43,865 nt of DNA from Escherichia phage vB_EcolP_P433.1. The position numbers were made by a program, and so were the translations under genes. The stretch lies in sequence record MN384978.1; one strand, written 5' to 3'. Shown here in pieces: positions 16,468 to 37,051 of this stretch. The notes beneath the pieces were generated by a model, which saw nothing but the letters and a program-made list of their open reading frames with translations, ran no database searches and was not told where the DNA came from. Positions within the stretch are counted from its first letter, which is position 1, and the number at the start of each line of letters is the position of its first letter.

Positions 16468-16501
16468 GGTACCTCCTAGTTAATGTCATTCATAAAGGCA
16501 T

Positions 16502-16517
16502 GTCTCACATGTGAGAC
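16502..16517. repeat. palindrome GTCTCAC-AT-GTGAGAC (18-bp perfect with flanks)
   Basis: Read directly; lies between the stop of the 981-aa gene and the RBS of the 1267-aa gene, flanked by the conserved GTTATACTCAAGG and CCTTTATGAAT boxes. Confidence 0.6.
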
Positions 16518-16534
16518 AAACCTTGAGTATAACA

Positions 16535-19480
16535 CTAGCTCAGTTTAATCCTACCAATCTGAGCATTAGGCACTAATGCGCCTTTCTTTGGAGGATACAC
16601 TTGCATCCATCCATCTTTACCAATCTGGTTGTAGATAGACTTATTAACGAATGCCTCTGACATTTGACCAGAGAACTTGACATACATAGAGCCATCCTCT
16701 CGTGTTTCCACTTCACTAATCTTAGGGACTGCACCACCGCTCTGTGCTAGGTTGTAGGCCTCTGCTCTGCGTACTAAAAGGGCCGGACTACGTTTACCTT
16801 CTGTGGATGCAGTAGATAGCATTTCGATGAACCCATCTGTAAACTTTCCAGCCTTGAATGCGGCGTAAGCCTTAGGTGCATTTTGGATACCACCTTTGCC
16901 TAAGTTATAAGATAAATCCATCAACCCACGTTGCACACCTGGATGCATGTCTTCAAAAGACACAGCCCAGCCTGCGGTACTAGGCACGTGGCTTTTCAAG
17001 TCTTGTTGCAGTAAGCGCATAGCGCGTTCAGGGGTTAACTGCGACTGTCCCGGATTGAATGGAACTTTGTCTGTACCAATCATAATGTACCCGTTCTTCT
17101 TCTCTTCGTCCGTAAGGAAATGACCATACCCTACAGATTGACCGTGTGCATCTTTGTAAGGTGTATAAACACCAGCTACTCTGTCAAAACCCACATTGGC
17201 ACTGTTCTCAGCTTTGGCTACATAATTATAGAAGTCCATATTATTCCTCTTATACCCAAACTCAAAGTTTGCTGGTAGGTTCTCACCTGATGCAAAGGCT
17301 GGTGACATTAAGAAGTCAGCAATCCCACGTGATCCTACAGTTTTGGCTGTAGTCTTTGCAGGCGGTTGTGCTTGGTATCCACCTGCACCCCACATCCTCA
17401 TTTGCTGTGCTTCAAAATTCTTACGCCCCTCATCCCGTGATTTAACTTCTGCATCATACCGTTGCTTAAGTAAGGATTGCCCTTTGATTTCAGACAAGGG
17501 CATTGCCTGTGTAACAGGTACACGACCAGAGCCTGCACGTATGGTAAAGAGTCCACGCTGCGCATCTACATCAAAATACAAATCCCCTTCTTCTAAGCCG
17601 CCTGATGCATCAAGAAGTGCTTGCTTGTTGTTATCCATATATTGACGTAGTGCCAGAGGCAGGTCGTTCTGGTTTACTCCTATAGTGTCACCTAATGTGC
17701 GAACATCACCTTTCACCAGAACACCTTGGGTAAAGAAACCCTCAGATAGCTGTGTATACTGGCTAGTCAAGTAGGATTTAAGATGACGTTTAATCGTGTC
17801 ATTATTATGGCCTGCAACCTTCATTGCTCTCGCAATTGTACTGGCTTCCTCCAGCATAATGTCACGACCCATCTCGCTCATGTTATCTCCACGAGTAAGC
17901 CAACTACCCCCTGCCACATCACTGACAACCCCATCTACATCCTCATTCAGTTCTTTAAGTACAGAACCTTGTAGTCTCTCTCCGCGAGAGGCATTCTGTG
18001 CAAACTCGATAGCTTGACCTGCATTATACCCCATGCGAGTTGCTAAGTCGTAGTTCTCTACAAAGGCATACTCCTTATCTCCCATGACAGCACGACGTGC
18101 ATCTTCTGGGATAGAGTCACGCGCTCGCATAATAGTCTGTAATGCTTCAGGCTCAACCTTCATATCTTTAAGGTTGGCAGAGGATAACTGCATAAGCGAC
18201 GAATATCTTTCCTTAATGATTGGGTCTTCAATAAGTTGTTGCCCCAGTTTAAGATAACGCATCTGCTCGTACCTACCACGAATAGCTTCAGCTTGTTCTC
18301 CGGTTGCACCAGTGCGGGCAATTTCATCTTCTGCCAACTTAGTATAAGTGGTAACTAATGCCTCTGCGTAAGCCTTCCTGTCATCTTTGCTAATGTCCTG
18401 CAAACCTAGAGGGGAGTCAGATTCTCCTCGTTTAATGAGGTCTTCCAGTTTTGCTGCCTCTGCATTAACCTTAGCTTGCCTATCGAAGATAGCTTTGATT
18501 TCACTATCAGACCAAGCAGTACCCCCGGTCAACTCATTGTGATTCTGCATTACCTGAAGTAACTCTTCACGAGTAAGTTGCCCTGCATCGAATGCCTTTA
18601 TAGCAGCATCCTTCTTCTCGAAGAGGGCGACCTGATTCTGTGCAGCCCAAGTCCTATTAGCTTGAATTTCTCCAGTTTGCAAAGCACCAACACGGTCGTA
18701 CAAAGAGACACCCTTATCATCCACCAGTGCTTTGGTGCCCTGAATAAGACTATCATCTCCTACTGCCGCCCTATCAGATGCAATCTTAGCAACCATTTGA
18801 TCAAACTCAGGTTTACTAAGACCCATTGCCAGTGCTTCTTTTTGTAGCTGAATGAGTGCTGCACCAGTGGCATCAGGTGCTACATCCTTTGTAGCCATGA
18901 TAATACGAGCCTGCATAGATTGCATACGCGCTTCTTCTTCTTGACGAAGTTTAGCCTCTGCTCTCGTAGCGGTGATTCGAGGTTGCTGCTCCATGAACGC
19001 GTTAGTGACAATCCTCATAGAATCCTTGTCACCACGAAGCTCTGGATAGCTTTGCCACAATCTATTTTGTACCTCATTACGAGATTGAACTACATAGTTT
19101 TCCCAATCTTCGTCACTGCCTTGAAATCGCTGTGCTTCTGCCTGTAGAGCAGCTGTCTGTGCGATTACATCATTTTGCAAACTAACCAGCATATGAGCAC
19201 GAGCACCACCTACTGTTGCATCCTCAGATGGCACCATACCAGATAATGCCCTGTCCATCTGGCGTACCTTATCTTCCTCAACCTTCTGATTAAGGATTCC
19301 AGTAGTAACATCAGCTACACTACTAGCTGCTTGAATAAGGTCTTCGATAAATCTACTACCGGAGTTAGAAGCCACGCCAGCATCAACACCACCCACTTGC
19401 TGGGGTGCAAAAGTCATGACATTAGGGGAAGTAGCCCGCACTTGTGGCAGTCCTTGTACTGCTTGTCTCTCAATTGCCAT
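16535..19480 (-). CDS. internal virion protein with C-terminal lysozyme-like (T4-lysozyme/GH24-type) domain (981 aa)
   Basis: Around aa 750-910 (about 16750-17235) the segment AENSANVGFDRVAGVYTPYKDAHGQSVGYGHFL matches the T4 lysozyme catalytic region (E...YKDTEGYYTIGIGHLL); position corresponds to T7 gp15. Confidence 0.7.
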   Translation of the reverse strand: MAIERQAVQGLPQVRATSPNVMTFAPQQVGGVDAGVASNSGSRFIEDLIQAASSVADVTTGILNQKVEEDKVRQMDRALSGMVPSEDATVGGARAHMLVSLQNDVIAQTAALQAEAQRFQGSDEDWENYVVQSRNEVQNRLWQSYPELRGDKDSMRIVTNAFMEQQPRITATRAEAKLRQEEEARMQSMQARIIMATKDVAPDATGAALIQLQKEALAMGLSKPEFDQMVAKIASDRAAVGDDSLIQGTKALVDDKGVSLYDRVGALQTGEIQANRTWAAQNQVALFEKKDAAIKAFDAGQLTREELLQVMQNHNELTGGTAWSDSEIKAIFDRQAKVNAEAAKLEDLIKRGESDSPLGLQDISKDDRKAYAEALVTTYTKLAEDEIARTGATGEQAEAIRGRYEQMRYLKLGQQLIEDPIIKERYSSLMQLSSANLKDMKVEPEALQTIMRARDSIPEDARRAVMGDKEYAFVENYDLATRMGYNAGQAIEFAQNASRGERLQGSVLKELNEDVDGVVSDVAGGSWLTRGDNMSEMGRDIMLEEASTIARAMKVAGHNNDTIKRHLKSYLTSQYTQLSEGFFTQGVLVKGDVRTLGDTIGVNQNDLPLALRQYMDNNKQALLDASGGLEEGDLYFDVDAQRGLFTIRAGSGRVPVTQAMPLSEIKGQSLLKQRYDAEVKSRDEGRKNFEAQQMRMWGAGGYQAQPPAKTTAKTVGSRGIADFLMSPAFASGENLPANFEFGYKRNNMDFYNYVAKAENSANVGFDRVAGVYTPYKDAHGQSVGYGHFLTDEEKKNGYIMIGTDKVPFNPGQSQLTPERAMRLLQQDLKSHVPSTAGWAVSFEDMHPGVQRGLMDLSYNLGKGGIQNAPKAYAAFKAGKFTDGFIEMLSTASTEGKRSPALLVRRAEAYNLAQSGGAVPKISEVETREDGSMYVKFSGQMSEAFVNKSIYNQIGKDGWMQVYPPKKGALVPNAQIGRIKLS
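17675..17697 (-). promoter_or_regulatory. SP6-type promoter CATTAGGTGACACTATAGGAGTA inside the internal-virion-protein gene
   Basis: Identical to the SP6 consensus from -15 to +1 (TTAGGTGACACTATAG), unlike the other promoters here which carry CTG or CCG at -12 to -10. Confidence 0.5.
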
Positions 19481-20205
19481 TAAACACCTCTTGTTCCAGA
19501 TGAATATGTACGAGAATCTGTTAAGGCTTTACCTAAAGCCATACCTGATTTACTACCTGTTACATAGGCAGATGCAAGACTTGGAATACCTTGAACCAAA
19601 GTACTTACGGCAGAAGGTTTCTTAAACTCACGCATCTGCATCTGTCCTCCGCGTTGGATAGCCTTAAGCTGATTAGTGAAATTAATCTTCTGATTCTCAT
19701 AGTTATCAATAATTGTACTCTGGTTTCTCCCTCCCTCTGCTGCCAAGTCATTCAGCATAGAAGCTACAGAGTTACCACCAGTACCAGTTGCACCTGCAAG
19801 TAATGCAACCTGTGCTCGCTGCTGTAGCAGTGAAGCCTGATTGCTTATTGCATCTGAGTGATACTGTTTAACAGCAGAGCGTTCTGCATCTGCCACTGTC
19901 TTATATGCTTCTTGTGTAGCAATTAACTGCTGCCGCCATTGCTCCTCCTGAGCTTTCTTCATGGCTTTGGCTTCATCGCTTCCACTAAAAAGATTGCCCA
20001 GAAGACCAAGACCTTGCATACCTGCACTAAGCAAGCCTGCATTGGAGAAGCCACCAGTGGAACCACTTAGGAAACCTCCCACGGAACCTAGTAAACCTCC
20101 ACCACCTGCTGCGGCAGAACCTCCAGCAGCGGCTGCTGCACCGCTACCTGCAAACATACTACCTAGAGAAGACATACCAGACATAACGGCTGAACCTATA
20201 GCCAT
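19480..20205 (-). CDS. internal virion protein, Gly/Ala/Ser-rich (241 aa)
   Basis: Start at the ATG overlapping the upstream stop (TAATG) with AGGAGG RBS; low-complexity Gly-rich N-terminal half; gp13/gp14-like by position. Confidence 0.5.
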   Translation of the reverse strand: MAIGSAVMSGMSSLGSMFAGSGAAAAAGGSAAAGGGGLLGSVGGFLSGSTGGFSNAGLLSAGMQGLGLLGNLFSGSDEAKAMKKAQEEQWRQQLIATQEAYKTVADAERSAVKQYHSDAISNQASLLQQRAQVALLAGATGTGGNSVASMLNDLAAEGGRNQSTIIDNYENQKINFTNQLKAIQRGGQMQMREFKKPSAVSTLVQGIPSLASAYVTGSKSGMALGKALTDSRTYSSGTRGV

Positions 20206-22607
20206 TAGACCCTCCTTTTGGTTGGATTGTAGCTTCCTTCCCACTCAATATCACGAAGCTGGAATGTGTGAGGTGACTCTACAATAATACGATAAACAAC
20301 ATCCGTGCTCTTAGCTCTCAGTGGGAATCTGAAGACACCCTCTCTTGGTTCAACATAACCTACTGTATTGTTGAGAGCGCCACCTATGCGGTTTGATGCT
20401 AACACCCTGCGTACTTTACCACTCTTCACATTCTTAACTTCCAATGAGAAGTCTGGATACATATCTAGGTTAAGGTGAACCAACCCCACAACTGGCACAT
20501 CAATATAAGATACGCGGTCTTGATTATCTCTAATAACCACAGGTGTAGGTTCAAACTCTTGAGGATAAATCTGACCAACAATGACTTTTGCCTTTACGTG
20601 GTTATCATCGTACATATCAAAAGTTGTAGATAAAGTGTTATCACCGGGGTTGTATTTGAATAAGAAAGAGCCGCCAATATATGAATCCCAGCCTTCTATT
20701 AAGATGCAATCCAAGAGTTCTGGGTTAGTAGGGACCCAAGGGAGTGGTTCAGATACCCATTCGTCTTCTGCTTTGAAATGCTGGAAGATTAACTCTGCCT
20801 GCCTGTCCATTCGGATGCGGTCATTCAAACCATAGGTCAAGGCATCACCCATATCCATCTTCTCCAGATAGACACCATTACCTCTCTCAAGGAGCAGGTA
20901 AAGTAATTCACCAGAATAAAACATACCTCGCACCTTTGTACCCAAAGGCCACTCCCACACATGCCAAGCTGATTGAACACGGTCTGTGCCCTGCCATAAC
21001 CAATCATAACAGTAAATTATATTATGATACTTATCTGTAGTGACAAGCAGTCTGTTGACATTGGTGCTTGCTGCCATGTTAGTAATGTTACCTTCGATGA
21101 GCTTGTTCACATGGCTTGTGATTGCCTGTGCTTTCTTAGTGTCACTATAAGAGTCTGTATAGAACTCTCGTACACCAGAGTAGGCTCCATCATTTGTAGC
21201 GAACATTACGGATTCACCAGTGGCAACTGGCTTAACTTTGTTGTTCACCTCAAATGTAGTTACAGGTTTGAGTAAGGCATTAGACTTCTCCAGCGGTTTA
21301 TCTCCCGGCAAGATAAATTGAGATTTATCAGAGAACAGCACAGTCGCACCATCTAAGGTCACTGCATGTTTCAACTGGTAAACTTCACTCGCATCTGAGA
21401 AGATATCGAATGGATCGGTAGCCAAAGCCGAGATAACCGTGTAACGGAAGAAATCAAAGAAGTAGGAAGTGCGTGATGCAATGACAGCTTCACCTGCTGT
21501 AAAGCATAAACGATTCTGCACCATGAACATCCCGCCAATTGTCTGGGGAACTTCTTCATCAATGAAAGATGGCATAGGGTTAGTGAGGTCATCGCCTACC
21601 TTGCGGTCTTCCCAATCTCCTTGCCTAATCTTAAATTGAGCAATACCATCAATAATGCCAGTACGCTCAATGATATAAGGCATAGTGCCTTTATCAAAAC
21701 CAAGCAATACGTCAGCAGCAACTGTCTCTTGCCAAGATACTAAATTGCCCTCTTTTGGCTCTGCTTCCAACCAATAACGTGACTCGGGTTTGCTTCCAGT
21801 GGGCCACACCTGTACTTTATACCCTTCAGGTGCACGAGAAGGAAGGAGATCAGTAGAGCTGACCTTATTCTTGATAGCCACTAGATCTTTTCCCTTTGCA
21901 CCATCGGTGGTTGTTACTGTAAAACTTGCACCATCACGTCTTTCTATAAATATACTTGTACCATCTCTTTGTATTTCATAATCACCAACACCACTCCATT
22001 GCTGCAACTTAGAGTACAATTCAGAAGTGATATGTTCCGTTCGAATTTGTTCAACCTGCTCTGCGCTTCCACCATCCGGTGTTTTAAAACTAGCAGCGTT
22101 GGCACCATTAATTATAATGGAATAAGATGTACCGTATTGACCATATGCACAAAACACAATGGCTTTGTTTCCAACTTTGGATGACTTTCTGTTACTGGCT
22201 TTAACTACCTTCCTGCGGTTAAGCATGAAAGTAACATCAGCTATCGTCATAAATTGCACATCTTCTCTTGGGTTTATCACCTCAGCCAAGTAAGTCATAG
22301 GTGCATCTTGTGAGGTCACATTGCATTTGCGCCCATACTTATCGAATATCTCAGGGACTTGTCCTTTCTTCAATGTGAAGAAATACTCTTCATCACCATC
22401 ACCTCTGCGATAATGGTGTGTGGCCATATCATCAGTACCCGCATCAAGTATCTTTGCAATATGAGTTGTACCCATGCGTGATTGCGTGCCATTCACCACA
22501 TCAGGTATCATATTAATCATAGCCGTACACTGACCATCCAAGCGTACCGCTGGAGGTTGCTGGCTAATCCCTTGGATTTGTCTGCCTAATGAACCTTGTA
22601 CTTCCAT
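20205..22607 (-). CDS. tail tubular protein B, gp12-like (800 aa)
   Basis: Size and position match T7 gp12 (794 aa); start at the ATG overlapping the upstream stop (TAATG). Confidence 0.7.
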   Translation of the reverse strand: MEVQGSLGRQIQGISQQPPAVRLDGQCTAMINMIPDVVNGTQSRMGTTHIAKILDAGTDDMATHHYRRGDGDEEYFFTLKKGQVPEIFDKYGRKCNVTSQDAPMTYLAEVINPREDVQFMTIADVTFMLNRRKVVKASNRKSSKVGNKAIVFCAYGQYGTSYSIIINGANAASFKTPDGGSAEQVEQIRTEHITSELYSKLQQWSGVGDYEIQRDGTSIFIERRDGASFTVTTTDGAKGKDLVAIKNKVSSTDLLPSRAPEGYKVQVWPTGSKPESRYWLEAEPKEGNLVSWQETVAADVLLGFDKGTMPYIIERTGIIDGIAQFKIRQGDWEDRKVGDDLTNPMPSFIDEEVPQTIGGMFMVQNRLCFTAGEAVIASRTSYFFDFFRYTVISALATDPFDIFSDASEVYQLKHAVTLDGATVLFSDKSQFILPGDKPLEKSNALLKPVTTFEVNNKVKPVATGESVMFATNDGAYSGVREFYTDSYSDTKKAQAITSHVNKLIEGNITNMAASTNVNRLLVTTDKYHNIIYCYDWLWQGTDRVQSAWHVWEWPLGTKVRGMFYSGELLYLLLERGNGVYLEKMDMGDALTYGLNDRIRMDRQAELIFQHFKAEDEWVSEPLPWVPTNPELLDCILIEGWDSYIGGSFLFKYNPGDNTLSTTFDMYDDNHVKAKVIVGQIYPQEFEPTPVVIRDNQDRVSYIDVPVVGLVHLNLDMYPDFSLEVKNVKSGKVRRVLASNRIGGALNNTVGYVEPREGVFRFPLRAKSTDVVYRIIVESPHTFQLRDIEWEGSYNPTKRRV

Positions 22608-23344
22608 TAACGATCCTCCCATGGACGAAGTGTCCAATTGTCATAAGGTGAATGAGAGTAAGCAGGTACATTCTGAGAGCCACCAGCCATGATGCCAAAC
22701 TGACGCTGAGTAGGGTTATGTACTAACATGTTCAACCTCTTCTGCGACATTTGTTCAGACTGCACATCCATAAGAAGCTGGGTAGCAATCTGCTGTGCTG
22801 TAGCCAGTTTAGTTTTGTCTGCATCCTTAGATACAATAAACTCTGCCGCAGCTTGATATGCAATTGCTTGCATTACACTTGTAGGGAGGTGCTCATAAGG
22901 GAGCAGTGTAAGTAAGGTAAGTCGCAGCATACCATTTGCATTAACATGCTTGCGCATATCAAAGGTGTGACTCCAAGTAGAGTACAATTTACCCGCGCGC
23001 ATAGTCATCGGGACTTTCTTCTCACCCAAAGCATAACATTGCAACACAGCAAGGCAATTATTGGGTAGGTTAACCTCACCATTTGCGTCTGGTGCAATTT
23101 GCCAGTTAGGTTCACGGTTGAACCACCAGCCACCGCCTTTGTTATACTGGAAGCGCTGAGACACAATATCAATCATCTTGCTTGCATCTTCTGCATCCAA
23201 GTCACCAGAGTCGAGAGAATCCACACCCTCACGACCAATGGCTCGCATACACAAGTTGACCGCTTCAAGTTTACTATCAATAATCTGGAAGGCCACATCT
23301 TCCATCATGTGTCCTACTTTACTGGTTTGTTTAATTACAGGCAT
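22607..23344 (-). CDS. tail tubular protein A, gp11-like (245 aa)
   Basis: Follows the capsid gene and terminator; start placed at ATG 23344 with AGGAGG RBS (track start at 23359 is not ATG). Confidence 0.65.
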   Translation of the reverse strand: MPVIKQTSKVGHMMEDVAFQIIDSKLEAVNLCMRAIGREGVDSLDSGDLDAEDASKMIDIVSQRFQYNKGGGWWFNREPNWQIAPDANGEVNLPNNCLAVLQCYALGEKKVPMTMRAGKLYSTWSHTFDMRKHVNANGMLRLTLLTLLPYEHLPTSVMQAIAYQAAAEFIVSKDADKTKLATAQQIATQLLMDVQSEQMSQKRLNMLVHNPTQRQFGIMAGGSQNVPAYSHSPYDNWTLRPWEDR

Positions 23345-23354
23345 GAACCCTCCT

Positions 23355-23391
23355 AACAAAAAGAGCCCTACCTACGCAAGGTAGATAGGGC
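23355..23391 (-). terminator. hairpin plus U-tract terminator after the major capsid gene
   Basis: 11-bp stem (GCCCUAUCUAC / GUAGGUAGGGC, one G.U) with a 5-nt loop followed by UCUUUUUGUU on the transcript; same place as T7 T-phi. Confidence 0.6.
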
Positions 23392-23398
23392 ATAGGTA

Positions 23399-24604: not shown

Positions 24605-24652
24605 TAATAAACCTCCTTATAAATCAAATTGATAATTTAGGGAGACATTTCT

Positions 24653-24675
24653 CCCTTCTATAGTGTCCAGTAAAT
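24653..24675 (-). promoter_or_regulatory. phage RNAP promoter ATTTACTGGACACTATAGAAGGG (capsid promoter)
   Basis: Read as reverse complement; lies between the scaffold and capsid genes. Confidence 0.8.
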
Positions 24676-24680
24676 ACTGA

Positions 24681-27362: not shown

Positions 27363-27371
27363 GTTGTCTCC

Positions 27372-29437: not shown

Positions 29438-29487
29438 ACTAATTCCTCCATTCACTATACAATCAAGGGCAAGCTAATACCTACCCT

Positions 29488-29510
29488 TTGTTCTATAGTG
29501 TCAACTAAAT
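29488..29510 (-). promoter_or_regulatory. phage RNAP promoter variant ATTTAGTTGACACTATAGAACAA
   Basis: GTT at -12 to -10; overlaps the stop of the phosphoesterase gene. Confidence 0.6.
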
Positions 29511-30536
29511 CTTACCAATCCAACGATTGTCACTATTGGTTTGCATCGGGACGATATGAGGTACACCCTCCAGAATAACAACACAACCTAATGCTGGCTT
29601 GTACTTAGATTCGCGCCCATAGGCAAATGCACGAGATGATTCGTCAATTAGACAGCCGCCCTGCACAGCCCAATATTGCTCATGAGTATTACGTGCATAC
29701 TCCACAGACATCTTACCATGCAAGTGACCACACACTAGATTCATACGCTCATGCGCTGCATCTGCTAGGACAGCGCCAGCAGGTTGATGCTTGAATGCTA
29801 CCTGTTCGCCATTCGGCAACTCAAGTACATGCGTATGCTGCCAATCCCACTGATCACCACCTCCCTGCGGGAAGAACACTTCTCGGTATGTACGCAGATA
29901 CTGCACAGGGATGCCTTTGGCGCTTGCCTTACGGAAGTGCATAGAGCCGTGATTAGAATGACACAGGCGCATTACAGGGAACATCTTGTGCAGCTTATGC
30001 ATGAAGACACGGGCCTTCTCTAATTCCATACCAGCGCTATCCAGATTGGGATCCGAGTCATGGAATGACAGGGCATGTTTATCTGCCTCATCACCTAGAT
30101 GAACTACAGTATCTGGACGATAACGTGCTGCCACTGCTGCAAGGAACTCTAAGGTGTCTGGATGCTCATAGGGTGCATGAGTGTCAGGGATTACCAGTAC
30201 ACTTCGATGAGGCGAGTCAGGCAATGGTACAATAGCCAAATCCTCATAGCGGTCAGGAGTCCTGAGCTTACGCTTTTCTTTGATACGCTTATCTTCTTGC
30301 AGAAGGGTCTGGTAATAATCACCATTCTTCTTGGTCTTCTTGAATTGACCATGCCAGTATCGAGCCAGCTGGCGGGTGATCTTCTTACCCACAGGGTGAC
30401 ACGATAATACTCGTGCCATCTCATTATAGTTAACATTACCTTTCTCGTCGGTAGCTTGCTCGATTGCATCAAGTACCTCGGAGTCTTTGTACAAGCTGCG
30501 AAGCTTACCCAACTTTAACCTCCTTCTTTCTTGCAT
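29505..30536 (-). CDS. calcineurin-like metallophosphoesterase (start uncertain)
   Basis: Motifs VIPDTHAPY, HLGDEAD, SNHG and GHLHG fit the D-x-H / GD-x-x-D / GNH signature; the track ORF reaches 30644 and overlaps endonuclease VII, so the start is tentatively placed at ATG 30536. Confidence 0.6.
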   Translation of the reverse strand: MQERRRLKLGKLRSLYKDSEVLDAIEQATDEKGNVNYNEMARVLSCHPVGKKITRQLARYWHGQFKKTKKNGDYYQTLLQEDKRIKEKRKLRTPDRYEDLAIVPLPDSPHRSVLVIPDTHAPYEHPDTLEFLAAVAARYRPDTVVHLGDEADKHALSFHDSDPNLDSAGMELEKARVFMHKLHKMFPVMRLCHSNHGSMHFRKASAKGIPVQYLRTYREVFFPQGGGDQWDWQHTHVLELPNGEQVAFKHQPAGAVLADAAHERMNLVCGHLHGKMSVEYARNTHEQYWAVQGGCLIDESSRAFAYGRESKYKPALGCVVILEGVPHIVPMQTNSDNRWIGKI

Positions 30537-30915
30537 AAGCAAGGCGTGCCTTACGGTTCTTAGCCTCGCGCTTCTCTGCCTCCGTTTGATGTTTGTGATA
30601 TAACTTATCTGTCTGAGGCGTACTATGTAACTTCCAGTATTCATACAGTCGCTCTAACCATTGAAGCTGGAAGTAACGGTTATTACCCGCCTTACCATAA
30701 CCAGAGATAACACCCTTAATCTTTCCTTCTGCACCATTGCAGCCTCGGCATACAACAGCACGGCAGAATCCTGTCTCATGGTCATGGTCAAGTACACGGT
30801 TTACAGGAGTAACAGCCTTGAGACTACCACCGCAGAGTGGACACTTCCACCCTTGCTTTTCTAGTAACTCTTTCTTATAAGCTGCTACCTCCGATGCTTT
30901 CAATTTGCTAACCAT
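30505..30915 (-). CDS. endonuclease VII-type Holliday-junction resolvase (136 aa)
   Basis: CPLCGGSL...LDHDHETGFCRAVVCRGCNGAEGKIK matches the T4 endonuclease VII zinc and catalytic motif (LDHDHE...CNxCN..EG as remembered). Confidence 0.75.
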   Translation of the reverse strand: MVSKLKASEVAAYKKELLEKQGWKCPLCGGSLKAVTPVNRVLDHDHETGFCRAVVCRGCNGAEGKIKGVISGYGKAGNNRYFQLQWLERLYEYWKLHSTPQTDKLYHKHQTEAEKREAKNRKARLAYARKKEVKVG

Positions 30916-31937
30916 TCCGCATCATCTCCCCACAAGATTGGGTTCTTATCGGCTCGCCATATATCTCCTTTGAATCTTGCCATGTGAGCCAAGCGACCAC
31001 ACTCAAGCATCAGGTCAAAGGCTTTACCGATACGATAACCCCCTCGGTAGTTTCTAATCTTAACTTGTCCATGCCCGAACTTAGCCTTGTAAGCACCAAG
31101 CACTGCCATGTACAACTCTTTCTCTGTCTTACAACCTTTGAGAAGATCATAGGCATACTTAGCACCACGACCCGGTATGCCAGAGTAATTATCGATATCA
31201 TCGCCAATAATCATCTGTGCATAATGGAACATGAGGCCAGCACCTTTTAGGTCTTTGACTTGACCATTAGCCTTACGGCGTAACTCGAGCCAACCCATAG
31301 GTTCTACCCACTTCTTCTCTTGACCCGGCTGAAGATGCCAACCGGGAACAATCATTAAATCCTTATCTAAGGAAACGATGCAAGTGTCAGAGAATGCTTT
31401 ATGCTCTGGACTACCGATAGGGAACTCGTTACCTGTATCTTGCTGGAAGCGGCGGTGGCTGTCCCATTGTGCAATGCTCATGAGGTCATCAGCTTCCTCG
31501 CCATCTGCCAAGATTGCACCATGAACCTCTAAGAGGTGCTCTCGCAATTCATAGAAGAAGGGAGGCTTCTCGGTCTTACGTTGACCCTTATAAGGTTTGG
31601 TGAAGGCTAGGCGAACACGGAAGTTAGCTTCTGATTTCGTCATGAATAACTTAGCTGCATCACACTCTGCTGCATACACCCAAGAGTTGAGCAAGGAGTT
31701 CACACGGTCACATGCTTGCTTACACTCAGGTGTATCTTTGATTGATGGGACTTGTCCTGACTTAACACGAGTTGTAGCTCGTACATAAGTCATGTCACTG
31801 ATTGTATAACCTACGATGTAGGGTAGCATATCAGCATCTATTAAAGCGATTCTATTACCTTCAGTTGGCCACAGGATGAGATTATTGTCTTCCGATACTG
31901 TAGCTCCGAAGTTGAAGTTTGGTCGCATGTAGGCCAC
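30900..31937 (-). CDS. 5'-3' exonuclease, T7 gp6-like FEN family (345 aa)
   Basis: GDDIDNYSGIPG matches T7 gp6 GDITDGYSGIAG as remembered; acidic cluster IALIDADML near the N-terminus. Confidence 0.8.
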   Translation of the reverse strand: MAYMRPNFNFGATVSEDNNLILWPTEGNRIALIDADMLPYIVGYTISDMTYVRATTRVKSGQVPSIKDTPECKQACDRVNSLLNSWVYAAECDAAKLFMTKSEANFRVRLAFTKPYKGQRKTEKPPFFYELREHLLEVHGAILADGEEADDLMSIAQWDSHRRFQQDTGNEFPIGSPEHKAFSDTCIVSLDKDLMIVPGWHLQPGQEKKWVEPMGWLELRRKANGQVKDLKGAGLMFHYAQMIIGDDIDNYSGIPGRGAKYAYDLLKGCKTEKELYMAVLGAYKAKFGHGQVKIRNYRGGYRIGKAFDLMLECGRLAHMARFKGDIWRADKNPILWGDDAEWLAN

Positions 31938-32137
31938 TCCTTCAAGATGTGCTCTACAACAGACTGAGCCACCTGAAGTGGGCTGAGGTCATAGTGATCA
32001 TCTGTATCGTGCAAATAATCATACTTTAAGAAAACCTCATCATCTAGCCACACTATAACACGAGTTATATAATCTCTGTGTAAGGCACTAAATCGTCTAT
32101 CGTAGTCAGCGCGTAAACGAGATTCAATAGTCGGCAT
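31841..32137 (-). CDS. hypothetical protein (98 aa)
   Basis: ORF overlapping the 5' end of the exonuclease ORF; the real boundaries are uncertain. Confidence 0.35.
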   Translation of the reverse strand: MPTIESRLRADYDRRFSALHRDYITRVIVWLDDEVFLKYDYLHDTDDHYDLSPLQVAQSVVEHILKEWPTCDQTSTSELQYRKTIISSCGQLKVIESL

Positions 32138-32256
32138 AATTCATTCTCCAATAACTATTACGCAAAAGACCCTGCCTACACTAAGGCAGACAGGGCATTA
32201 GATGAGGTGAGCGTGATAGCCACAACTAGGACTAACAGAGGCAACACCTGCTATTA

Positions 32257-32625
32257 TCAAAATTCTTCTTCTTCGCTTACCGGTACTTCCTGTGCAGCTA
32301 CGTCTTCTACTGCTTCAGCTTCTTCGGCAGCCTTAACTTCTTTCACTGGTTTACCAGCAGCAACCCAGTCCAGATATTCAGCTACGATATTAGCCTTACC
32401 AATCTGAGCTTTGTCAGCCTGCTCAGGGAAGCAAGCACGAGCGAACTCCAGACCAGCAGCGAAGTTACCCATGCTGTCAATTTTAGCTTGAGCATCTTCA
32501 CGTGTATCATAAGCCTTAGTGCCAGCTACCAGTTTGTTGGCTTCATCGACGATAACGAAAGACTCAACGGATACCAGATCAGCACCTTTAACAACACGGT
32601 TTACGATAGTTTCAATCTTGAACAT
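32257..32625 (-). CDS. hypothetical protein with acidic C-terminal tail ending in Phe (122 aa)
   Basis: Downstream of the promoter at 32676-32698; C-terminus ...EVPVSEEEEF resembles the polymerase-binding tails of T7 gp2.5 and gp4. Confidence 0.5.
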   Translation of the reverse strand: MFKIETIVNRVVKGADLVSVESFVIVDEANKLVAGTKAYDTREDAQAKIDSMGNFAAGLEFARACFPEQADKAQIGKANIVAEYLDWVAAGKPVKEVKAAEEAEAVEDVAAQEVPVSEEEEF

Positions 32626-32675
32626 ATTAAATTCTCCTTTTGTTTGTTATGGCATTATCGCCGATTAAAATTCTT

Positions 32676-32698
32676 CTCTTCTATAGTGTCCAGTAAAT
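32676..32698 (-). promoter_or_regulatory. phage RNAP promoter ATTTACTGGACACTATAGAAGAG
   Basis: Read as reverse complement; preceded 16 bp upstream by the palindrome at 32714-32729. Confidence 0.75.
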
Positions 32699-32713
32699 AC
32701 CGGACACCGATTT

Positions 32714-32729
32714 GTCTCACACGTGAGAC
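32714..32729. repeat. inverted repeat GTCTCAC-AC-GTGAGAC
   Basis: Read directly; begins 1 nt after the stop of the 72-aa gene and ends 16 bp before the promoter. Confidence 0.6.
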
Positions 32730-32730
32730 T

Positions 32731-32949
32731 TTATAAAACTGTGTTCACCTGAGCAATGTCGTGCGCCGGAAGCGATACGCCGTGGCGTTTCCCCGTAGCC
32801 GGGTCACTGTAGTTCACCACGTGCTGTCCATCGCGCCAGATGTAGTGCAGGTCGGCGTATGTCTCCCCTTCAGAGAAGGAGTGGAAAGTGCCACCTCCGA
32901 GCGTTGTGATACCTTTCTTGCAGTGCAGGGTTACGATTTGTACTTTCAT
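32731..32949 (-). CDS. hypothetical protein (72 aa)
   Basis: ORF immediately after the SSB-like gene; no motif support. Confidence 0.4.
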   Translation of the reverse strand: MKVQIVTLHCKKGITTLGGGTFHSFSEGETYADLHYIWRDGQHVVNYSDPATGKRHGVSLPAHDIAQVNTVL

Positions 32950-32958
32950 CCTTTCTCC

Positions 32959-33765
32959 TTAATATTCCGCGTCCTCATCCATCTCCGGTGCAGGAGTATC
33001 TTCTGCTTCAGGTACTTCCTGTGGAACAGACTCACCAGTATCCAGAGATTTACGATTAGCTGGAGTAGCATCCTCGTCATCTTTCTTCTTGGCTTTCTTC
33101 CACTCTGGGTCTTCTTCACGAGCAGCTTTAATGATTGCTTCTACGTGAGAACCAGCAACAGACAGGTTCTTACCACGAGGTGTTTCATTAAGGAAGTATT
33201 GACGCACCAAGTTAGCTGGGATGTCATCAAGGATTTCTTTGGTCAGCTTGTCGAAGGTGATATGACCTGTCATAGACAGACCTTCTTCTTCAACCTGAGC
33301 AATGACAAGTTTCTTCAGCTTGTCTGGCATACCACCAAAACCTTTCCAGTTAACATACTTGAATGACCCATCGTCATTCTTATCACCGGAGCCAACCATA
33401 GTTGCAGTCAGGCATTCACCAATGAAGTCATCGAAGCCACCAAGCAATTCTTTAGGGTCAACTGCATTCAGGAACTTAGTCAAGGTTGCCTTGTCCCCAG
33501 ACTTCAGAGGCACAGCCATCCACTGTTCCATGCGAGAATCATCTTCATTCTTGTCATCGTCACCCATCAGGACAATCTTAACAAGAACAAAGTTTGCTGG
33601 CTTCTTAACTTCAGTGGTATTACCTTTCTTAAAGATATCTTGGAAGGAACCCACATGAATGATGCCAGAGATTACTGCTTCGTGATCACCAACTTCAGGG
33701 TTCTTAAATACTTTACCTTCAGATTTAGTAACCTGAGCACCAAAATCAAAATCACCACGTGCCAT
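32959..33765 (-). CDS. putative single-stranded DNA-binding protein (268 aa)
   Basis: Extremely acidic C-terminal tail ending in an aromatic residue (...PEMDEDAEY) like T7 gp2.5; assignment otherwise positional. Confidence 0.45.
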   Translation of the reverse strand: MARGDFDFGAQVTKSEGKVFKNPEVGDHEAVISGIIHVGSFQDIFKKGNTTEVKKPANFVLVKIVLMGDDDKNEDDSRMEQWMAVPLKSGDKATLTKFLNAVDPKELLGGFDDFIGECLTATMVGSGDKNDDGSFKYVNWKGFGGMPDKLKKLVIAQVEEEGLSMTGHITFDKLTKEILDDIPANLVRQYFLNETPRGKNLSVAGSHVEAIIKAAREEDPEWKKAKKKDDEDATPANRKSLDTGESVPQEVPEAEDTPAPEMDEDAEY

Positions 33766-33950
33766 TTATTTAGTCTCCTATTGTCAGTTAGCTTTGTACT
33801 GAGCACAAGCATGTACTCACTAGAAAGCCCGATATAGTATCGGGTTGTGCAAGATGCACAATAAGGTTCAACGCTTTACAATCATAGGACGTGCTTAGGC
33901 TTACGCTCACTGAGCACCTTGGATTTACTGTCTCTGACAAACCCACCCTA

Positions 33951-33973
33951 TTGTTCTATAGTGTCCAGTAATT
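33951..33973 (-). promoter_or_regulatory. phage RNAP promoter AATTACTGGACACTATAGAACAA
   Basis: Read as reverse complement; overlaps the 3' end of the 125-aa ORF, upstream of the SSB-like gene. Confidence 0.65.
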
Positions 33974-34349
33974 ATTTGATCAGATTGTCTAACTCAATTT
34001 CCAGCATAACAATCTCTTTCTTCAGACTGTCAGATGCAGCCTGATGTACAAGAGCAACGGAGGCCTTGTTCTCTTCGAAATCAGCTTTCAGGTTGTCACG
34101 CTCTTGCTGGTGACGTGCCAGCATCTCTTCCACCTCTTTGACTTGACGTGCATTCAGGTCATCACGAGATGCATAGTAGCGGTTATGGCAGTCAATCATT
34201 TGAGAACTACGATGTTCTTCTACATCTACTTGTTCTTCTTCAATTTTGTTGATACGCTCTTGAATTGCAAAGATGGCCTTCTGCTTAAACTTATTAGATA
34301 AGCCACGAAAGTATTGGGCTACGAATACCAGAGTAGTTACCATAGACAT
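33972..34349 (-). CDS. hypothetical protein with hydrophobic N-terminus and coiled-coil-like remainder (125 aa)
   Basis: First gene after the promoter at 34414-34436; MSMVTTLVFVAQYF hydrophobic start. Confidence 0.45.
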   Translation of the reverse strand: MSMVTTLVFVAQYFRGLSNKFKQKAIFAIQERINKIEEEQVDVEEHRSSQMIDCHNRYYASRDDLNARQVKEVEEMLARHQQERDNLKADFEENKASVALVHQAASDSLKKEIVMLEIELDNLIK

Positions 34350-34413
34350 ATTTATATCTCCTATATTTACTTAATTACCTATACTACCTTATAAACCTAG
34401 ATTACCTAGGCTT

Positions 34414-34436
34414 TCCTTCTATAGTGTCCAGTAAAT
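34414..34436 (-). promoter_or_regulatory. phage RNAP promoter ATTTACTGGACACTATAGAAGGA
   Basis: Read as reverse complement; about 70 nt downstream of the DNA polymerase stop. Confidence 0.75.
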
Positions 34437-34504
34437 CATGTTAGACAAAATAAGTGGGAATAAGTTATTCATAAAGGCCACCCGTAAGTGACCTTGAGTA
34501 TAAC

Positions 34505-37051
34505 TCAGTGTGTTTCTTTCCAGCTTGCACCTATCTTATACTCGCCTGCCATCGGGCAACGCATCTTCAGATACTGCCCTGCCCAAGTCATGGCGTCGGC
34601 AATGATATGCCCTGCACGGTGATAACGCCGCTGGCAATGAAGTACACCAGCAGTAGCATCAACACTAACGAGATTTGCAGCAGACCACATACGTCCCTCA
34701 GAATCCACATGAACACGTTTCTCCTCTGCATCGAACACTGCTTTCACAGCGGCCTTCTCTGTTTCAAAACCCTCTAAGGTGAAAGGCAGGTCGTAGTTAA
34801 GATACAAGACCTCTTCTTCAGGAACCTCCATCTGGATTTCATCATGCACGTTAGCTACACCACAAGGGTTTCCCATACTATCTAAGGCCACACCTTCCTT
34901 GCGCATAACTGCAAATGCCTTGACTAATGCGTATTTCATACACAAAGAACCTGTCATCTGGAGTAATACGTTAAGCATAGTGTGCTCTTTAAGTTCACCA
35001 CCAGACATACGGATGCGACCCCAATGCCCATCAGGTGCTTGTAGGTAGCCAAACTTGTTACCTTGTGCAATAACATTCTCGCGAAGACGTGCAAGGGATG
35101 GTAGTTCAATCTCAAATCTTGCCACAACTTCCTTCATTTCTTCCTCAGTAACACCACACACTGCTGCAAGGTTTGCTATACCAGAACCATAGAGGAAAGC
35201 ATATATAAATGTTTTCGCCATATCACGCTTAGGAAGCCCAGCCTTCATCTGGTTATGCGTATGTATATCACCATGCAGTACAATATCTTGGTATTCAGGG
35301 TCATTCATGAAGTGAGACAGCACACGTAGTTCAAGACCTGCACCATCACAACCTAGGATTAGCTTACCTTTACCTGCTATGAATAAATCACGTAAAGGAT
35401 ACAAGCCACGGGCAGGAATATTAACCACGTTACGATGACGCATACGGAACGTAGAAGTGCCAATACTAATAGCAACAGCTGGAACACGCCACTCTCCATC
35501 ATCCTTATCTGACGTAGGCCAGTGTCCATACCTTTCGTAGTATTGCTGCGCATTGACTCCTAGCTCCTTGTTAAATGCTACAGGTACAAGGCCACGACAC
35601 TTTCGTACACCAGCCTGCGAGGGCCACGTTCCTTTCTCGTTGAAGGCTTCAACGTCACCACGGTTGAGTATCTGACCACGACGGGATACGAGTATGTACC
35701 ATGCAGCGATACCCAAGCACCAATCAGGGACTGTTTTACCTTCACGTGCGGCTCTTTCTTGCCATAAAGTAAGGGACTTCTCATTTATCTTACCACTCCA
35801 AGGCTTAGGTAGGACACCATTTTCATCAAGGTATGCTTGCTCTGTGTCGTTGAACTCCACACCTTTCCATCCATAGTCATAGAGCACTTGCTTAACGGTG
35901 TCACGGTTTCCCAAGGGAATCTCTTCAAACGTAACGGGACTGTAAGCGCCAACCCACTTGATGCTTGGCGTGTCATTACGGTTTCCTCTAAGGTGAGGGA
36001 AATCTTTCTTGACAGAAGCACTCCAATCTCCAGACTTAGTTGTGACAGACCATACAGTCTTCCTATCTCCACGGCGCTCCGCATGTAGAAAGTGTGAGGG
36101 GTCGAGTACAGTTGGGATATTATTGTTTCTTCCATACTCATTTGCTTTTTGGCAGGTTTCATTCTTTTCTTCCGGTTTAAAAGGTTTAGACTTGATACGC
36201 ATAGGCATGTGCGGACGGAACGCTGCGACTGTCTCATCAATCTTAGCGTCCAGTTCTTCGCATCGCGCTAATGCCTTGTCGATATCCAGACGGAAGCCAC
36301 GCTCGGCCTGACGGCTCATCTCCAGCGCTACAATGGACTCCATGTGGAAGGCTGTCTCAATGCCTAGGCCAGTACGTTTATTCACGCCACGGCGTTTGTG
36401 CTCCGTCCATTCCCCATTAAATAGCCAGAGGAATAGGTCACGACCAATCGCCACGTCCTCACGTACGCGATGCACCATGTGGTCGGTCAGTTTAGACCAA
36501 TCTTCGTTCTCCGGCTTATAGCGGCCTATACGGATGCCGTGCGCCTCAATTGAGTGAGGGGCAACGTTACCCATACCTTTGGCATAAGCCTGAGGAGGGA
36601 GGCGTCTATCGGGGTTTAACAGGCGGCTCATGACCAGCGTATCCATGACGCGTACCGGACACAGGTCAGCACGGAGTCTGCCCTTGCCGCGCTTCTCGGT
36701 ATAGTTAAAGCCTTTCCAGATATCAGGGAATGCTTTCTCAAAGAGAAGCCCGTCATACCCTAGGAAGTTCTGTGACACGATAGCTTCACAGTGCTTCAGG
36801 AAGTTAACGCCGTCAACTAAGTCACCATCTTGATGCCCTTCCCACTCCTTCAGGCGTTCTCTTGCTTCAGGGTCACGCATCTCATATGGGTCAAAGAAGA
36901 GGAATTCCTCAGTGGTGAGCAAGTCCATGCAGCAAATGATGTGCACATCTTCGCGGTGTCCATATCGGATAGCATCAAGAAGACCCTTAGCCTCCGCATC
37001 CATTACTAGGATGCGGCCTTCTGCTTCCTTCTTCCAATCAATAATCTTCAT
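34505..37051 (-). CDS. DNA polymerase, family A with 3'-5' exonuclease domain (848 aa)
   Basis: Exo motif VMDAEAKGL; polymerase motif A GCDGAGLELRVL, motif B KTFIYAFLYGSG, motif C VHDEIQMEV, all close to the T7 gp5 equivalents. Confidence 0.9.
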   Translation of the reverse strand: MKIIDWKKEAEGRILVMDAEAKGLLDAIRYGHREDVHIICCMDLLTTEEFLFFDPYEMRDPEARERLKEWEGHQDGDLVDGVNFLKHCEAIVSQNFLGYDGLLFEKAFPDIWKGFNYTEKRGKGRLRADLCPVRVMDTLVMSRLLNPDRRLPPQAYAKGMGNVAPHSIEAHGIRIGRYKPENEDWSKLTDHMVHRVREDVAIGRDLFLWLFNGEWTEHKRRGVNKRTGLGIETAFHMESIVALEMSRQAERGFRLDIDKALARCEELDAKIDETVAAFRPHMPMRIKSKPFKPEEKNETCQKANEYGRNNNIPTVLDPSHFLHAERRGDRKTVWSVTTKSGDWSASVKKDFPHLRGNRNDTPSIKWVGAYSPVTFEEIPLGNRDTVKQVLYDYGWKGVEFNDTEQAYLDENGVLPKPWSGKINEKSLTLWQERAAREGKTVPDWCLGIAAWYILVSRRGQILNRGDVEAFNEKGTWPSQAGVRKCRGLVPVAFNKELGVNAQQYYERYGHWPTSDKDDGEWRVPAVAISIGTSTFRMRHRNVVNIPARGLYPLRDLFIAGKGKLILGCDGAGLELRVLSHFMNDPEYQDIVLHGDIHTHNQMKAGLPKRDMAKTFIYAFLYGSGIANLAAVCGVTEEEMKEVVARFEIELPSLARLRENVIAQGNKFGYLQAPDGHWGRIRMSGGELKEHTMLNVLLQMTGSLCMKYALVKAFAVMRKEGVALDSMGNPCGVANVHDEIQMEVPEEEVLYLNYDLPFTLEGFETEKAAVKAVFDAEEKRVHVDSEGRMWSAANLVSVDATAGVLHCQRRYHRAGHIIADAMTWAGQYLKMRCPMAGEYKIGASWKETH

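Follow-up and report, generated by a model that had tools for sequence, protein, structure and literature searches.

Box-hairpin-box elements in an SP6/K1E-like phage genome as very probable T7-type RNase III processing sites

Introduction

Two long genes of the phage genome analysed here are followed by the same pair of short boxes enclosing different hairpins, which raises the question of what signal these elements carry. The window, i.e. the whole 43.9-kb stretch of DNA that was analysed, is a circularly permuted genome of an SP6/K1E-like phage (Molineuxvirinae), and on its minus (coding) strand, where all the genes near composite elements are located, the composite element GTTATACTCAAGG - hairpin - CCTTTATGAAT is found 3' of two stop codons. 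In T7, a box-hairpin-box arrangement has been known since the 1980s as the classic signal at which host RNase III cuts long phage mRNAs between genes, and some of these sites (R6.5, R13) have a promoter inside or beside the hairpin. T7-like phages also possess intrinsic terminators, T-phi after the capsid gene and TE after the early region, in which a G+C-rich stem leads into a U run. The original prediction had considered the elements a shared signal for either RNA processing or termination.

Materials and methods

A covariance model was trained solely on seven T7 RNase III sites and run on the window. The cleavage coordinates used for choosing the training sites, which reportedly go back to Dunn and Studier in 1983, were checked against the T7 sequence; the T7 records NC_001604 and V01146 display no RNase III features. 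Orthologs of site 3, which a default-filter model search misses, were read directly from the sequence. The positions of the RNase III boxes were mapped onto the stems from the text of PMC1540722, not from its figure.

Results and discussion

The features identified are listed in Table 1. Site 1 reads TAG-T-GTTATACTCAAGG-TTTGTCTCACATGTGAGACATG-CCTTTATGAAT and site 2 reads TGA-GTTATACTCAAGG-TCACTTACGGGTGG-CCTTTATGAAT; the boxes noticed after the stop codons of the 981-aa gene and the DNA polymerase gene are thus exactly identical while the hairpins differ (TTTGTCTCACATGTGAGACATG vs TCACTTACGGGTGG), and neither box has another exact copy in the window. Comparison with PHROGs and annotated relatives identifies the 981-aa product as an internal virion protein with a lysozyme domain, a homolog of which is likened to T7 gp15 in the record of Proteus phage Premi, and the 848-aa product as the DNA polymerase. 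The shorter version described after the 68-aa gene, GTCAAGG-GTTGTCTCACACGTGAGACA-GCCTTTCAT (site 3), is also present, as a weaker copy (21.6 bits, E 0.003 with the T7-only covariance model). The repeated 13-mer alone was rejected as a significant signal, given that around 20 exact 13-mer pairs arise by chance in each first-order Markov-resampled window; a 13-mer pair accompanied by a shared 11-mer 5-44 nt further on appeared only 5 times in 200 resampled windows.

Table 1. Coordinates in the window of the predicted processing sites, their parts and neighbouring features.
Feature	Position	Strand	Remarks
Site 1, RNase III-type processing site (predicted)	16481..16537	-	Between the 981-aa gp15-like and 1267-aa gp16-like genes
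Site 1 upstream stop codon	16537-16535	-	ORF 16535..19480 (981-aa gene)
Site 1 boxes	16533-16521; 16498-16488	-	GTTATACTCAAGG; CCTTTATGAAT
Site 1 lower stem	5' arm 16537-16529; 3' arm 16489-16481	-	5' arm includes TAG stop
Site 1 internal loop	16528-16525; 16494-16490	-	ACUC; UAUGA
Site 1 upper stem	16524-16495	-	Contains the 16-nt palindrome
Site 1 predicted cut	between 16492 and 16491	-	By analogy with T7
Site 2, RNase III-type processing site (predicted)	34460..34508	-	Directly 3' of the DNA polymerase gene
Site 2 upstream stop codon	34507-34505	-	ORF 34505..37051 (DNA polymerase)
Site 2 boxes	34504-34492; 34477-34467	-	GTTATACTCAAGG; CCTTTATGAAT
Site 2 lower stem	5' arm 34507-34500; 3' arm 34468-34461	-	5' arm includes TGA stop
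Site 2 internal loop	34499-34496; 34473-34469	-	ACUC; UAUGA
Site 2 upper stem	34495-34474	-	AAGGUCACU/GGGUGGCCUU, loop UACG
Site 2 predicted cut	between 34471 and 34470	-	By homology with T7
SP6-type phage promoter	34416..34436	-	ATTTACTGGACACTATAGAAG; starts 24 nt 3' of site 2; zero mismatches to the promoter pattern
Site 3, divergent RNase III-type site (predicted)	37201..37257	-	After the 68-aa gene (ORF 37248..37454), before a small ORF and the DNA polymerase gene
Site 3 parts			Lower stem CAGUCGAUA/UAUUGAUUG; internal loop AGUC/UCAUC; upper stem on the palindrome
Site 4, probable site of the same architecture	38396..38452	-	3' of the 662-aa primase/helicase gene
Site 4 parts			12-bp lower stem, 2/3-nt internal loop, palindrome as upper stem
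Promoter upstream of site 4	38486-38506		
Site 5, possible related site	4627..4668	-	Directly 5' of the ribosome-binding site of the 485-aa gene
Site 5 stem			18 bp, one mismatch; CUUUUCU-U-AAAGGUUAUCA...UGGUAGCCUUU-C-AGAAAAG
Terminator-like site	23391-23365		After the capsid gene
Terminator-like site	32196-32169		
Terminator-like site	41112-41089		After the RNA polymerase gene

The boxes proved to be a near letter-for-letter match to those of T7, where R0.3, R0.5, R1.1, R4.7 and R18.5 read (A)CTCAAGG-hairpin-CCTTTAT|GAT. Both sites 1 and 2 have (A)CUCAAGG 5' and CCUUUAUGA 3' of the hairpin, within the strings AUACUCAAGG ... CCUUUAUGAAU that are found identically in T7 R0.3, R0.5, R1.1 and R18.5, while site 3 carries the diverged strings AGUCAAGG ... 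CCUUUCAUCA. The two best matches of the T7-only model in the window were site 2 (47.6 bits, E 9.5e-11) and site 1 (39.0 bits, E 3e-8). For comparison, the T7 training sites scored 46-63 bits and R6.5, a T7 site kept out of the training, 23.7 bits, with matches in T7 outside the known sites reaching at most 16.4 bits, except for the antisense strand of R0.5 (17.7). The same model gave 17.1 bits (E 0.07) for site 4, which is probably a further site of the same architecture, and 17.5 bits (E 0.054) for site 5, a possible related site and the weakest assignment of the five. Two other matches were dismissed, that at 41089-41112 being an ordinary terminator and that at 34927-34973 lying inside the polymerase ORF. 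No Rfam family matched the sites in a gathering scan, and all that the E-value scans returned was miRNA-precursor hairpins at chance level.

In the centroid folds, sites 1-3 each have a lower stem of 8-9 bp, a 4/5 loop and an upper stem of 9-13 bp, the same architecture as in the predicted folds of T7 R0.5, R1.1 and R18.5. RNA folding, which had been suggested as a check, favoured the elements, with z-scores from -4.2 to -5.1 and the T7-like 4/5 loop: site 1 folds at -22.3 kcal/mol (z -4.2) and sites 2 and 3 have z-scores of -4.5 and -5.1, respectively; those of site 4 (-30.2 kcal/mol) and site 5 are -9.5 and -6.3. As in T7, sites 1-3 are predicted to form two stacked helices of around two helical turns broken by the 4/5-nt loop, the lower one measuring 7-9 bp and the upper one, capped by a tetraloop, about 10 bp. 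The 5' arm includes the upstream gene's stop codon, like in R0.5, R1 and R18.5. Differing from T7, a family-specific 16-nt palindrome makes a longer upper stem (13-15 bp) at three sites. The notion of conserved flanks around a variable stem needs to be amended in one respect: the flanks are conserved, but they are not passive, as the boxes pair with each other. They build the lower stem (with the upstream stop codon) and the asymmetric internal loop, and also contribute the four basal pairs of the upper stem (AAGG/CCUU).

The closest known counterparts are T7 R0.5, R18.5, R1.1, R0.3 and R4.7. R1.1 serves as the model substrate in work from the Nicholson laboratory (PMC1540722, PMC6121014), and its internal loop is an asymmetric one of 4 nt/5 nt (PMC6121014). 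Internal loops restrict cleavage to one phosphodiester, leaving protective 3' hairpins, and the boxes for E. coli RNase III have been defined as pb1 G-C, pb2 A-U/U-A, pb3 A-U and pb4 a weak pair, with UA/UG in the distal box (PMC1540722). The upper stem of site 2 begins with seven pairs (AAGGUCA/UGGCCUU) identical to those of R1.1, and the proximal box of sites 1 and 2 (C.U, A-U, A-U, G-C) is that of native R1.1 as given in PMC1540722. In the distal box, site 2 has A-U followed by C-G, sharing the second pair with T7 R0.5 and R4.7 (G.U, then C-G), and site 1 has U-A and G-C after a U.U mismatch, different from the optimal UA/UG pairs of R1.1. Because of this departure, the reactivity of site 1 lies beyond what can be asserted from its sequence.

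The search of related genomes lent further weight to the elements, revealing orthologs of site 1 in all 12 relatives and of site 2 at 15 of 26 DNA polymerase loci, with many compensatory changes; among 53 more distant DNA polymerase loci, no site was found except in LL11. Across 17 distinct orthologous or paralogous sequences, in an alignment fitted to the model, 99.3% of cells were paired and 11 of 17 pairs showed compensatory changes with both sides altered, e.g. GUACCUA/UAGGCAC in K1E vs GUGUUAU/AUGACAU in the window. Slid alignments used as controls paired at 37-51%, and none of 500 shuffles reached the observed values. In K1E-type phages, the site 1 region aligns only over the 39-nt element, the flanking coding sequence having diverged too far to be detected by blastn. 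Orthologs of site 3 are present in SP6, Proteus and other relatives, also with compensatory changes (e.g. CAGUUAAUA/UAUUAAUUG), and there are syntenic SP6 counterparts of site 4 (a match at 8527-8583) and of site 5 (a nearly identical copy at 41698-41739, 19.7 bits). T7 was not returned by any of the blastn searches run. Since the T7 consensus, internal-loop sequence included, is nevertheless retained in the SP6-like subfamily, this suggests selection on the consensus by host RNase III.

All the sites are on the minus strand, between ORFs and downstream of SP6-type promoters. Like in T7, a ribosome-binding site or a promoter is located just downstream, and the order of site 2 and its SP6-type promoter recalls that of R4.7 and promoter phi4.7. 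Proximity to promoters is also shared with R6.5 and R13, site 4 being just 3' of one and site 2 just 5', but the window hairpins have no internal promoter. T7 is a Studiervirinae phage, unlike the phage studied here, and the positions of sites 1 and 2 (between the gp15-like and gp16-like genes and 3' of the DNA polymerase gene, respectively) have no equivalent among the seven training sites or the ten reported T7 positions.

Given this match to the experimentally defined T7 sites, which extends from sequence and predicted fold to covariation and placement, the composite elements are very probably T7-type RNase III processing sites in polycistronic SP6/K1E-like transcripts, processing being the strongly supported one of the two functions originally envisaged. 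Cleavage in T7 has been established in vivo, whereas at the window sites it is a prediction that we infer by homology with T7. The phage RNA polymerase would read through the elements, and the RNA is predicted, with support from covariation, to fold into a two-part hairpin with a 7-9 bp lower stem holding the upstream stop codon, an asymmetric ACUC/UAUGA loop and a 9-13 bp upper stem, the base of which (AAGG/CCUU) fits the RNase III proximal box. Host RNase III would then bind the stacked helix of around 20 bp, and the internal loop would confine the cut to the 3' strand, at CCUUUAU|GA by homology with T7, leaving the upstream mRNA with a protective 3'-terminal hairpin. The downstream RNA would begin around 20-25 nt 5' of the next ribosome-binding site at sites 1 and 3, and at site 2 it would be a short spacer before the next promoter. 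A literature search that did not extend to Dobbins 2004 and Scholl 2004 gave nothing relevant on RNase III sites in SP6, K1-5 or K1E-like phages, and no RNA end mapping for this phage or its relatives was found in the literature searched.

The elements are real but ordinary, i.e. a known T7-type signal that is unannotated in public records of the SP6 group: RNase III sites are annotated in none of the four examined (SP6 AY370673, K1E, LL11 and Premi). The known mechanism is left unchanged by these sites. What they provide is a correction of annotation, as the public record of at least one relative names the orthologous hairpin a terminator, and a prediction of exactly where the mRNAs of the DNA polymerase and internal-virion genes are bounded, useful for engineering K1E/SP6-like therapeutic phages.

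It could be considered that the 16-nt hairpin GUCUCACAUGUGAGAC is an independent RNA module with its own function, although we find this doubtful. The SP6 group would have grafted the hairpin into the frame of an RNase III site at three positions, placing lone copies inside the primase gene as well as 3-15 nt 5' of phage promoters; the module could be recognised by a factor of the phage or the host, or mark a 3' end or a pause, and processing at the palindrome sites would then be coupled to a second activity. Stand-alone palindromes at 2203, 32714, 40846 and 41032 were not taken as sites, since they have neither lower stem nor boxes; their folds (z from -2.05 to +1.08) are weaker than that of any site (z from -4.2 to -9.5). 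Another copy, at 39828 within the primase ORF (z -3.4), has no boxes and was not counted either.

Among the alternatives to RNase III processing, the hairpins might act mainly without cleavage, either as translational or stability elements, e.g. if exposure of the downstream ribosome-binding site were coupled to termination of the upstream gene, or as RNase III binding sites left uncut. Such a role would fit with the stop codon being within the lower stem and a Shine-Dalgarno sequence 6-10 nt past the 3' arm at sites 1, 3 and 4, but at site 2 there is a promoter instead of a downstream ribosome-binding site. RNase III does bind some substrates without cutting them (PMC1540722), and the non-optimal distal box of site 1 points in the same direction; the identity of the internal loop and the proximal box to those of T7 sites cut in vivo speaks against it, and we regard this alternative as improbable.

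That the elements are terminators or pause sites of phage or host RNA polymerase, where the DNA polymerase and gp15-like mRNAs would end by termination, is very unlikely, even though the GenBank record of Proteus phage Premi labels the site 1 ortholog 'terminator'. They share with the intrinsic terminators of T7-like phages the presence of a stable hairpin after a gene, here directly 3' of the stop codon, but neither element has a G+C-rich stem with an immediate U run; the stem is followed by UUUAUGAAU, and the part of the original prediction that concerned termination is not sustained. A scan for terminator-like sites in 15600-35500 returned 25, neither element being among them, and the terminator-like sites of this genome, unlike the composite elements, show G+C-rich stems and a T run (at least five Ts in true examples). 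Site 1 is also in the middle of an operon and, since there is no phage promoter between 24655 and 11424, efficient termination there would cut off the essential 1267-aa gp16-like gene.

Least credible of all is that the boxes are DNA-level features with no function in RNA, such as recombination junctions or scars at cassette boundaries or a protein-binding palindrome: gene content right beside site 2 does vary (in K1E, genes 13.5 and 14 separate the polymerase gene from the site, and other relatives have a gene in place of the promoter that follows it in the window), and sites 1, 3 and 4 have as their upper stem a perfect 16-bp DNA palindrome that is also found alone, but all the composite copies found by the covariance model are on the coding strand, the boxes are asymmetric rather than showing dyad symmetry conserved on both strands, the palindrome is variable at its loop positions (CATG, CGTG, CACG), and in relatives the pairing is preserved at the expense of DNA symmetry, by G.U wobbles and compensatory changes. 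SP6 GTCTAACATGTTGGAC folds on the transcribed strand only: in six of nine SP6 copies this strand reads GUCUAAC..GUUGGAC, with a U.G wobble vs a C.A mismatch on the complementary strand. Of the remaining SP6 copies, two are perfect palindromes and one (493) is of reverse polarity.

Composite elements and their match to T7 RNase III sites

The two identical boxes announced in the original prediction, placed around differing hairpins directly 3' of the stop codons of the 981-aa internal virion gene (site 1) and the DNA polymerase gene (site 2), were confirmed from the sequence, and the shorter copy following a 68-aa ORF (site 3) also matches its description there. Each box is present in exactly two copies in the window, both confined to sites 1 and 2. 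Exact 13-mer pairs amount to around 20 per resampled window, so the 13-mer repeat alone is not significant; the two-box composite occurred 5 times in 200 resampled windows.

The gene names proposed originally were likewise correct according to PHROGs and the annotation of relatives. The 981-aa protein matches a lysozyme-domain family, and its homologs are annotated as internal virion or lysozyme-domain proteins, with a note in the Proteus phage Premi record comparing one of them to T7 gp15; the 1267-aa protein encoded downstream matches a family whose members are internal virion proteins bearing an endolysin domain, and a homolog of the 848-aa protein is annotated as DNA polymerase. All long ORFs are on the minus strand, as are eleven SP6-type promoters (ATTTACYGGACACTATAGRAG). 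Megablast with window 16000-36000 identified Vectrevirus/K1E-like and related Molineuxvirinae phages (among them CrRp3, LL11, K1E, K1-5 and SP6) with 85-93% identity.

The T7 genome sequence was inspected at positions taken as the RNase III cleavage sites of Dunn and Studier (1983), and the agreement with the composite of the window was nearly letter for letter. A covariance model was trained on an alignment of seven T7 sites alone, with the classical structure imposed, and the entire window was scanned on both strands with filters off. Besides sites 1 to 3, matches were obtained after the 662-aa primase/helicase gene (site 4) and before the 485-aa gene (site 5). Under their own model the T7 training sites score 46-63 bits, and R6.5, left out of training, was recovered in T7 at 23.7 bits; T7 matches outside known sites were all at or below 16.4 bits, save the antisense strand of R0.5 (17.7 bits). 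No family for such sites was found in Rfam.

Features of the window (minus-strand elements written on the coding strand) and T7 sequences at the RNase III positions (arrow, cleavage position); scores are from the T7-only model
Feature	Position	Strand	Score	Sequence or location
Site 1	16481-16537	-	39.0 bits, E 3e-8	TAG-T-GTTATACTCAAGG-TTTGTCTCACATGTGAGACATG-CCTTTATGAAT; after 981-aa ORF 16535..19480
Site 2	34460-34508	-	47.6 bits, E 9.5e-11	TGA-GTTATACTCAAGG-TCACTTACGGGTGG-CCTTTATGAAT; after 848-aa ORF 34505..37051
Site 3	37201-37257	-	21.6 bits, E 0.003	
Site 4	38396-38452	-	17.1 bits, E 0.07	
Site 5	4627-4668	-	17.5 bits, E 0.054	
T7 R0.3				GATAACTCAAGG-GTATCGCAAGGTGC-CCTTTAT↓GAT
T7 R0.5				TGATAGACTCAAGG-...-CCTTTAT↓GATTATCAC
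T7 R1.1				ACTCAAGGTCATTCGCAAGAGTGGCCTTTAT↓GATT
T7 R4.7				CCTCAAGG-...-CCTTCAT↓GAATAC
T7 R18.5				TGATATACTCAAGG-...-TCTTTAT↓GGAT
Terminator-like hairpin	23391-23365	-		after major capsid gene, counterpart of T7 T-phi
Terminator-like hairpin	32196-32169	-		DNA-metabolism region
Terminator-like hairpin	41112-41089	-		after RNA polymerase gene
16-nt palindrome alone	41032-41047, 40846-40861, 32714-32729, 39828-39843, 2203-2218			without boxes, without lower stem
RNA polymerase gene	41120..43771	-		
A/G-rich stretch	40862-41006	-		after RNA polymerase gene
Two-part hairpin	912-954	-	12.7 bits	after promoter-like ...CACTATAAGAGAAG
G+C-rich hairpin	4676-4697	-		GCGGCTTACGCCGC; directly 3' of 704-aa gene, upstream of site 5
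Group I intron (RF00028)	9871-10078	-		end of 405-aa ORF
405-aa ORF	9996..11213	-		
177-aa ORF	9293..9826	-		after intron
55-bp tandem duplication	43688-43742, 43743-43797			near start of RNA polymerase gene
ORF equal in length to SP6 gene 6	1-885			

Predicted structure and conservation

RNA folding of the elements gave stable two-part hairpins of T7-like architecture. Sites 1, 2 and 3 and T7 R0.5, R1.1 and R18.5 share a centroid fold, with an 8-9 bp lower stem, an internal loop that has 4 nt on its 5' side and 5 nt on its 3' side, and a 9-13 bp upper stem capped by a tetraloop (z-scores -4.2 to -5.1 in this comparison; site 4, -9.5). R1.1 is a 60-nt RNA of the region separating T7 genes 1.0 and 1.1, and its internal loop is described as asymmetric, 4 nt/5 nt (PMC6121014). 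Given this common fold, the boxes decompose into lower stem, internal loop and base of the upper stem: GUUAU is predicted to pair with AUAAC at site 2 and with AUGAC at site 1, ACUC and UAUGA to form the loop, and AAGG and CCUU to supply the four basal pairs of the upper stem. The upstream gene's stop codon falls within the 5' arm of the lower stem, an arrangement shared with T7 R0.5, R1 and R18.5.

When the boxes were sought in related genomes, taking IMG/VR loci around homologs of the 981-aa C-terminus and of the DNA polymerase, the model found a site 1 ortholog directly 3' of the gene in all 12 loci (30-45 bits; SP6, a Proteus phage and K1E among them) and a site 2 ortholog in 15 of 26, either immediately 3' of the polymerase gene or beyond one or two small inserted genes. 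In more distant polymerase loci it found no site in any of 53, with the exception of LL11. SP6 has syntenic matches to sites 2, 1, 5 and 4, and the exact pattern ACTCAAGG-N(10-40)-CCTTTATGA is present in at least 120 IMG/VR stretches, most of them on 38-46 kb contigs, which match T7-like and SP6-like phages in genome size.

Compensatory changes are plentiful among the orthologs. Where the lower stem of the window reads GUGUUAU/AUGACAU, SP6 has GUGUCAU/AUGACAU and K1E has GUACCUA/UAGGCAC. At site 2, most relatives have AAGGUCAC/GUGGCCUU as upper stem and two have AAGGCAUC/GGUGCCUU; site 3 orthologs covary as well (CAGUCGAUA/UAUUGAUUG versus CAGUUAAUA/UAUUAAUUG), and the base of their upper stem exists in several versions. 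Across 17 distinct sequences, in an alignment fitted to the model, pairing is retained in 99.3% of cells and 11 of 17 pairs have changes on both sides; no shuffle attained the observed pairing values, and slid controls pair at 37-51%. At site 1 of K1E-type genomes the blastn alignment is restricted to the 39-nt element, the flanking coding sequence being too diverged. The fold has been maintained during evolution.

K1E genes 13.5 and 14, both missing from the window, are inserted between the polymerase gene and site 2. With inserted genes upstream and variable content downstream, site 2 marks a boundary of variable gene cassettes. The breakpoints (window 34505 junction; K1E locus L002, 746-960) have ACTGA in common, and 3' of site 2 relatives have a promoter, or a ribosome-binding site and gene directly.

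Processing or termination

A terminator is what the Premi record makes of its site 1 ortholog. At sites 1 and 2, however, the stems are followed by UUUAUGAAU, whereas the genuine terminator-like hairpins of this genome consist of a G+C-rich stem and a run of Ts, and neither site is among the terminator-like sites of window 15600-35500. No promoters were found between 24655 and 11424, which places site 1 within a long operon that continues downstream into an essential virion gene. Of the "shared RNA processing or termination signal" first proposed, processing is strongly supported by the T7 match, the fold and the covariation, and termination is not supported, given the missing U run and the operon position.

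By homology we infer that the stacked helices would be bound by host RNase III, which would recognise the proximal box and cleave a single bond in the 3' strand of the loop, CCUUUAU↓GA; this predicts cleavage at bonds 16492/16491 (site 1) and 34471/34470 (site 2). The putative proximal box (C.U, A-U, A-U, G-C) is that of native T7 R1.1; the distal box of site 1 departs from the optimal one. Preferred box pairs have been described, internal loops restrict cleavage to one phosphodiester, and the 3' hairpin left by cleavage shields RNA from 3'-5' exonucleases (PMC1540722). Cleavage at sites 1, 3 and 4 would give a downstream product that starts some 20-25 nt ahead of the following start codon, immediately before the Shine-Dalgarno sequence; site 2 has a promoter 24 nt downstream, as phi4.7 follows T7 R4.7. 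We consider the finding real and, by analogy with T7, its reading as a processing signal correct, cleavage itself being predicted. The element is of an ordinary, textbook kind, unannotated in this phage group where examined: the SP6, K1E and LL11 records have nothing annotated at the site.

Stand-alone palindromes and other observations

Three of the stand-alone palindromes precede phage promoters by 3-15 nt, and another is within the primase/helicase ORF. Nine copies of a variant occur in SP6, in partly syntenic positions. Two of these are perfect palindromes and one has reverse polarity; the other six pair through U.G wobble on the transcribed strand only, which, together with a variable, loop-like central four bases, argues against a DNA palindrome and points to an RNA hairpin.

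The A/G-rich stretch, with repeated TAGG/AAGG motifs between two palindrome-plus-promoter units, is conserved in SP6 (L125, about 6130-6260). In layout this arrangement resembles the T7 primary replication origin, where gene 1 is followed by two promoters and an AT-rich region. The hairpin at 912-954 is strong (z -6.8); its two stems are 8 bp each, the upper one G+C-rich, with a 2/2 internal loop between them. In the SP6 counterpart of the hairpin upstream of site 5 the sequence differs and pairing is retained.

The 405-aa ORF matches a terminase large-subunit PHROG family across its whole 395-position profile, and also a longer terminase family, of 760 positions, in its middle part. A group I intron (63.6 bits, E 5.7e-14) sits at the end of this ORF and the 177-aa ORF has an HNH endonuclease match, so that an intron bearing a homing endonuclease appears to interrupt the terminase gene. 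Finally, the perfect 55-bp duplication and the ORF at the start of the window suggest a circularly permuted assembly with leftover k-mer overlap, and the duplication looks like an artefact rather than biology.
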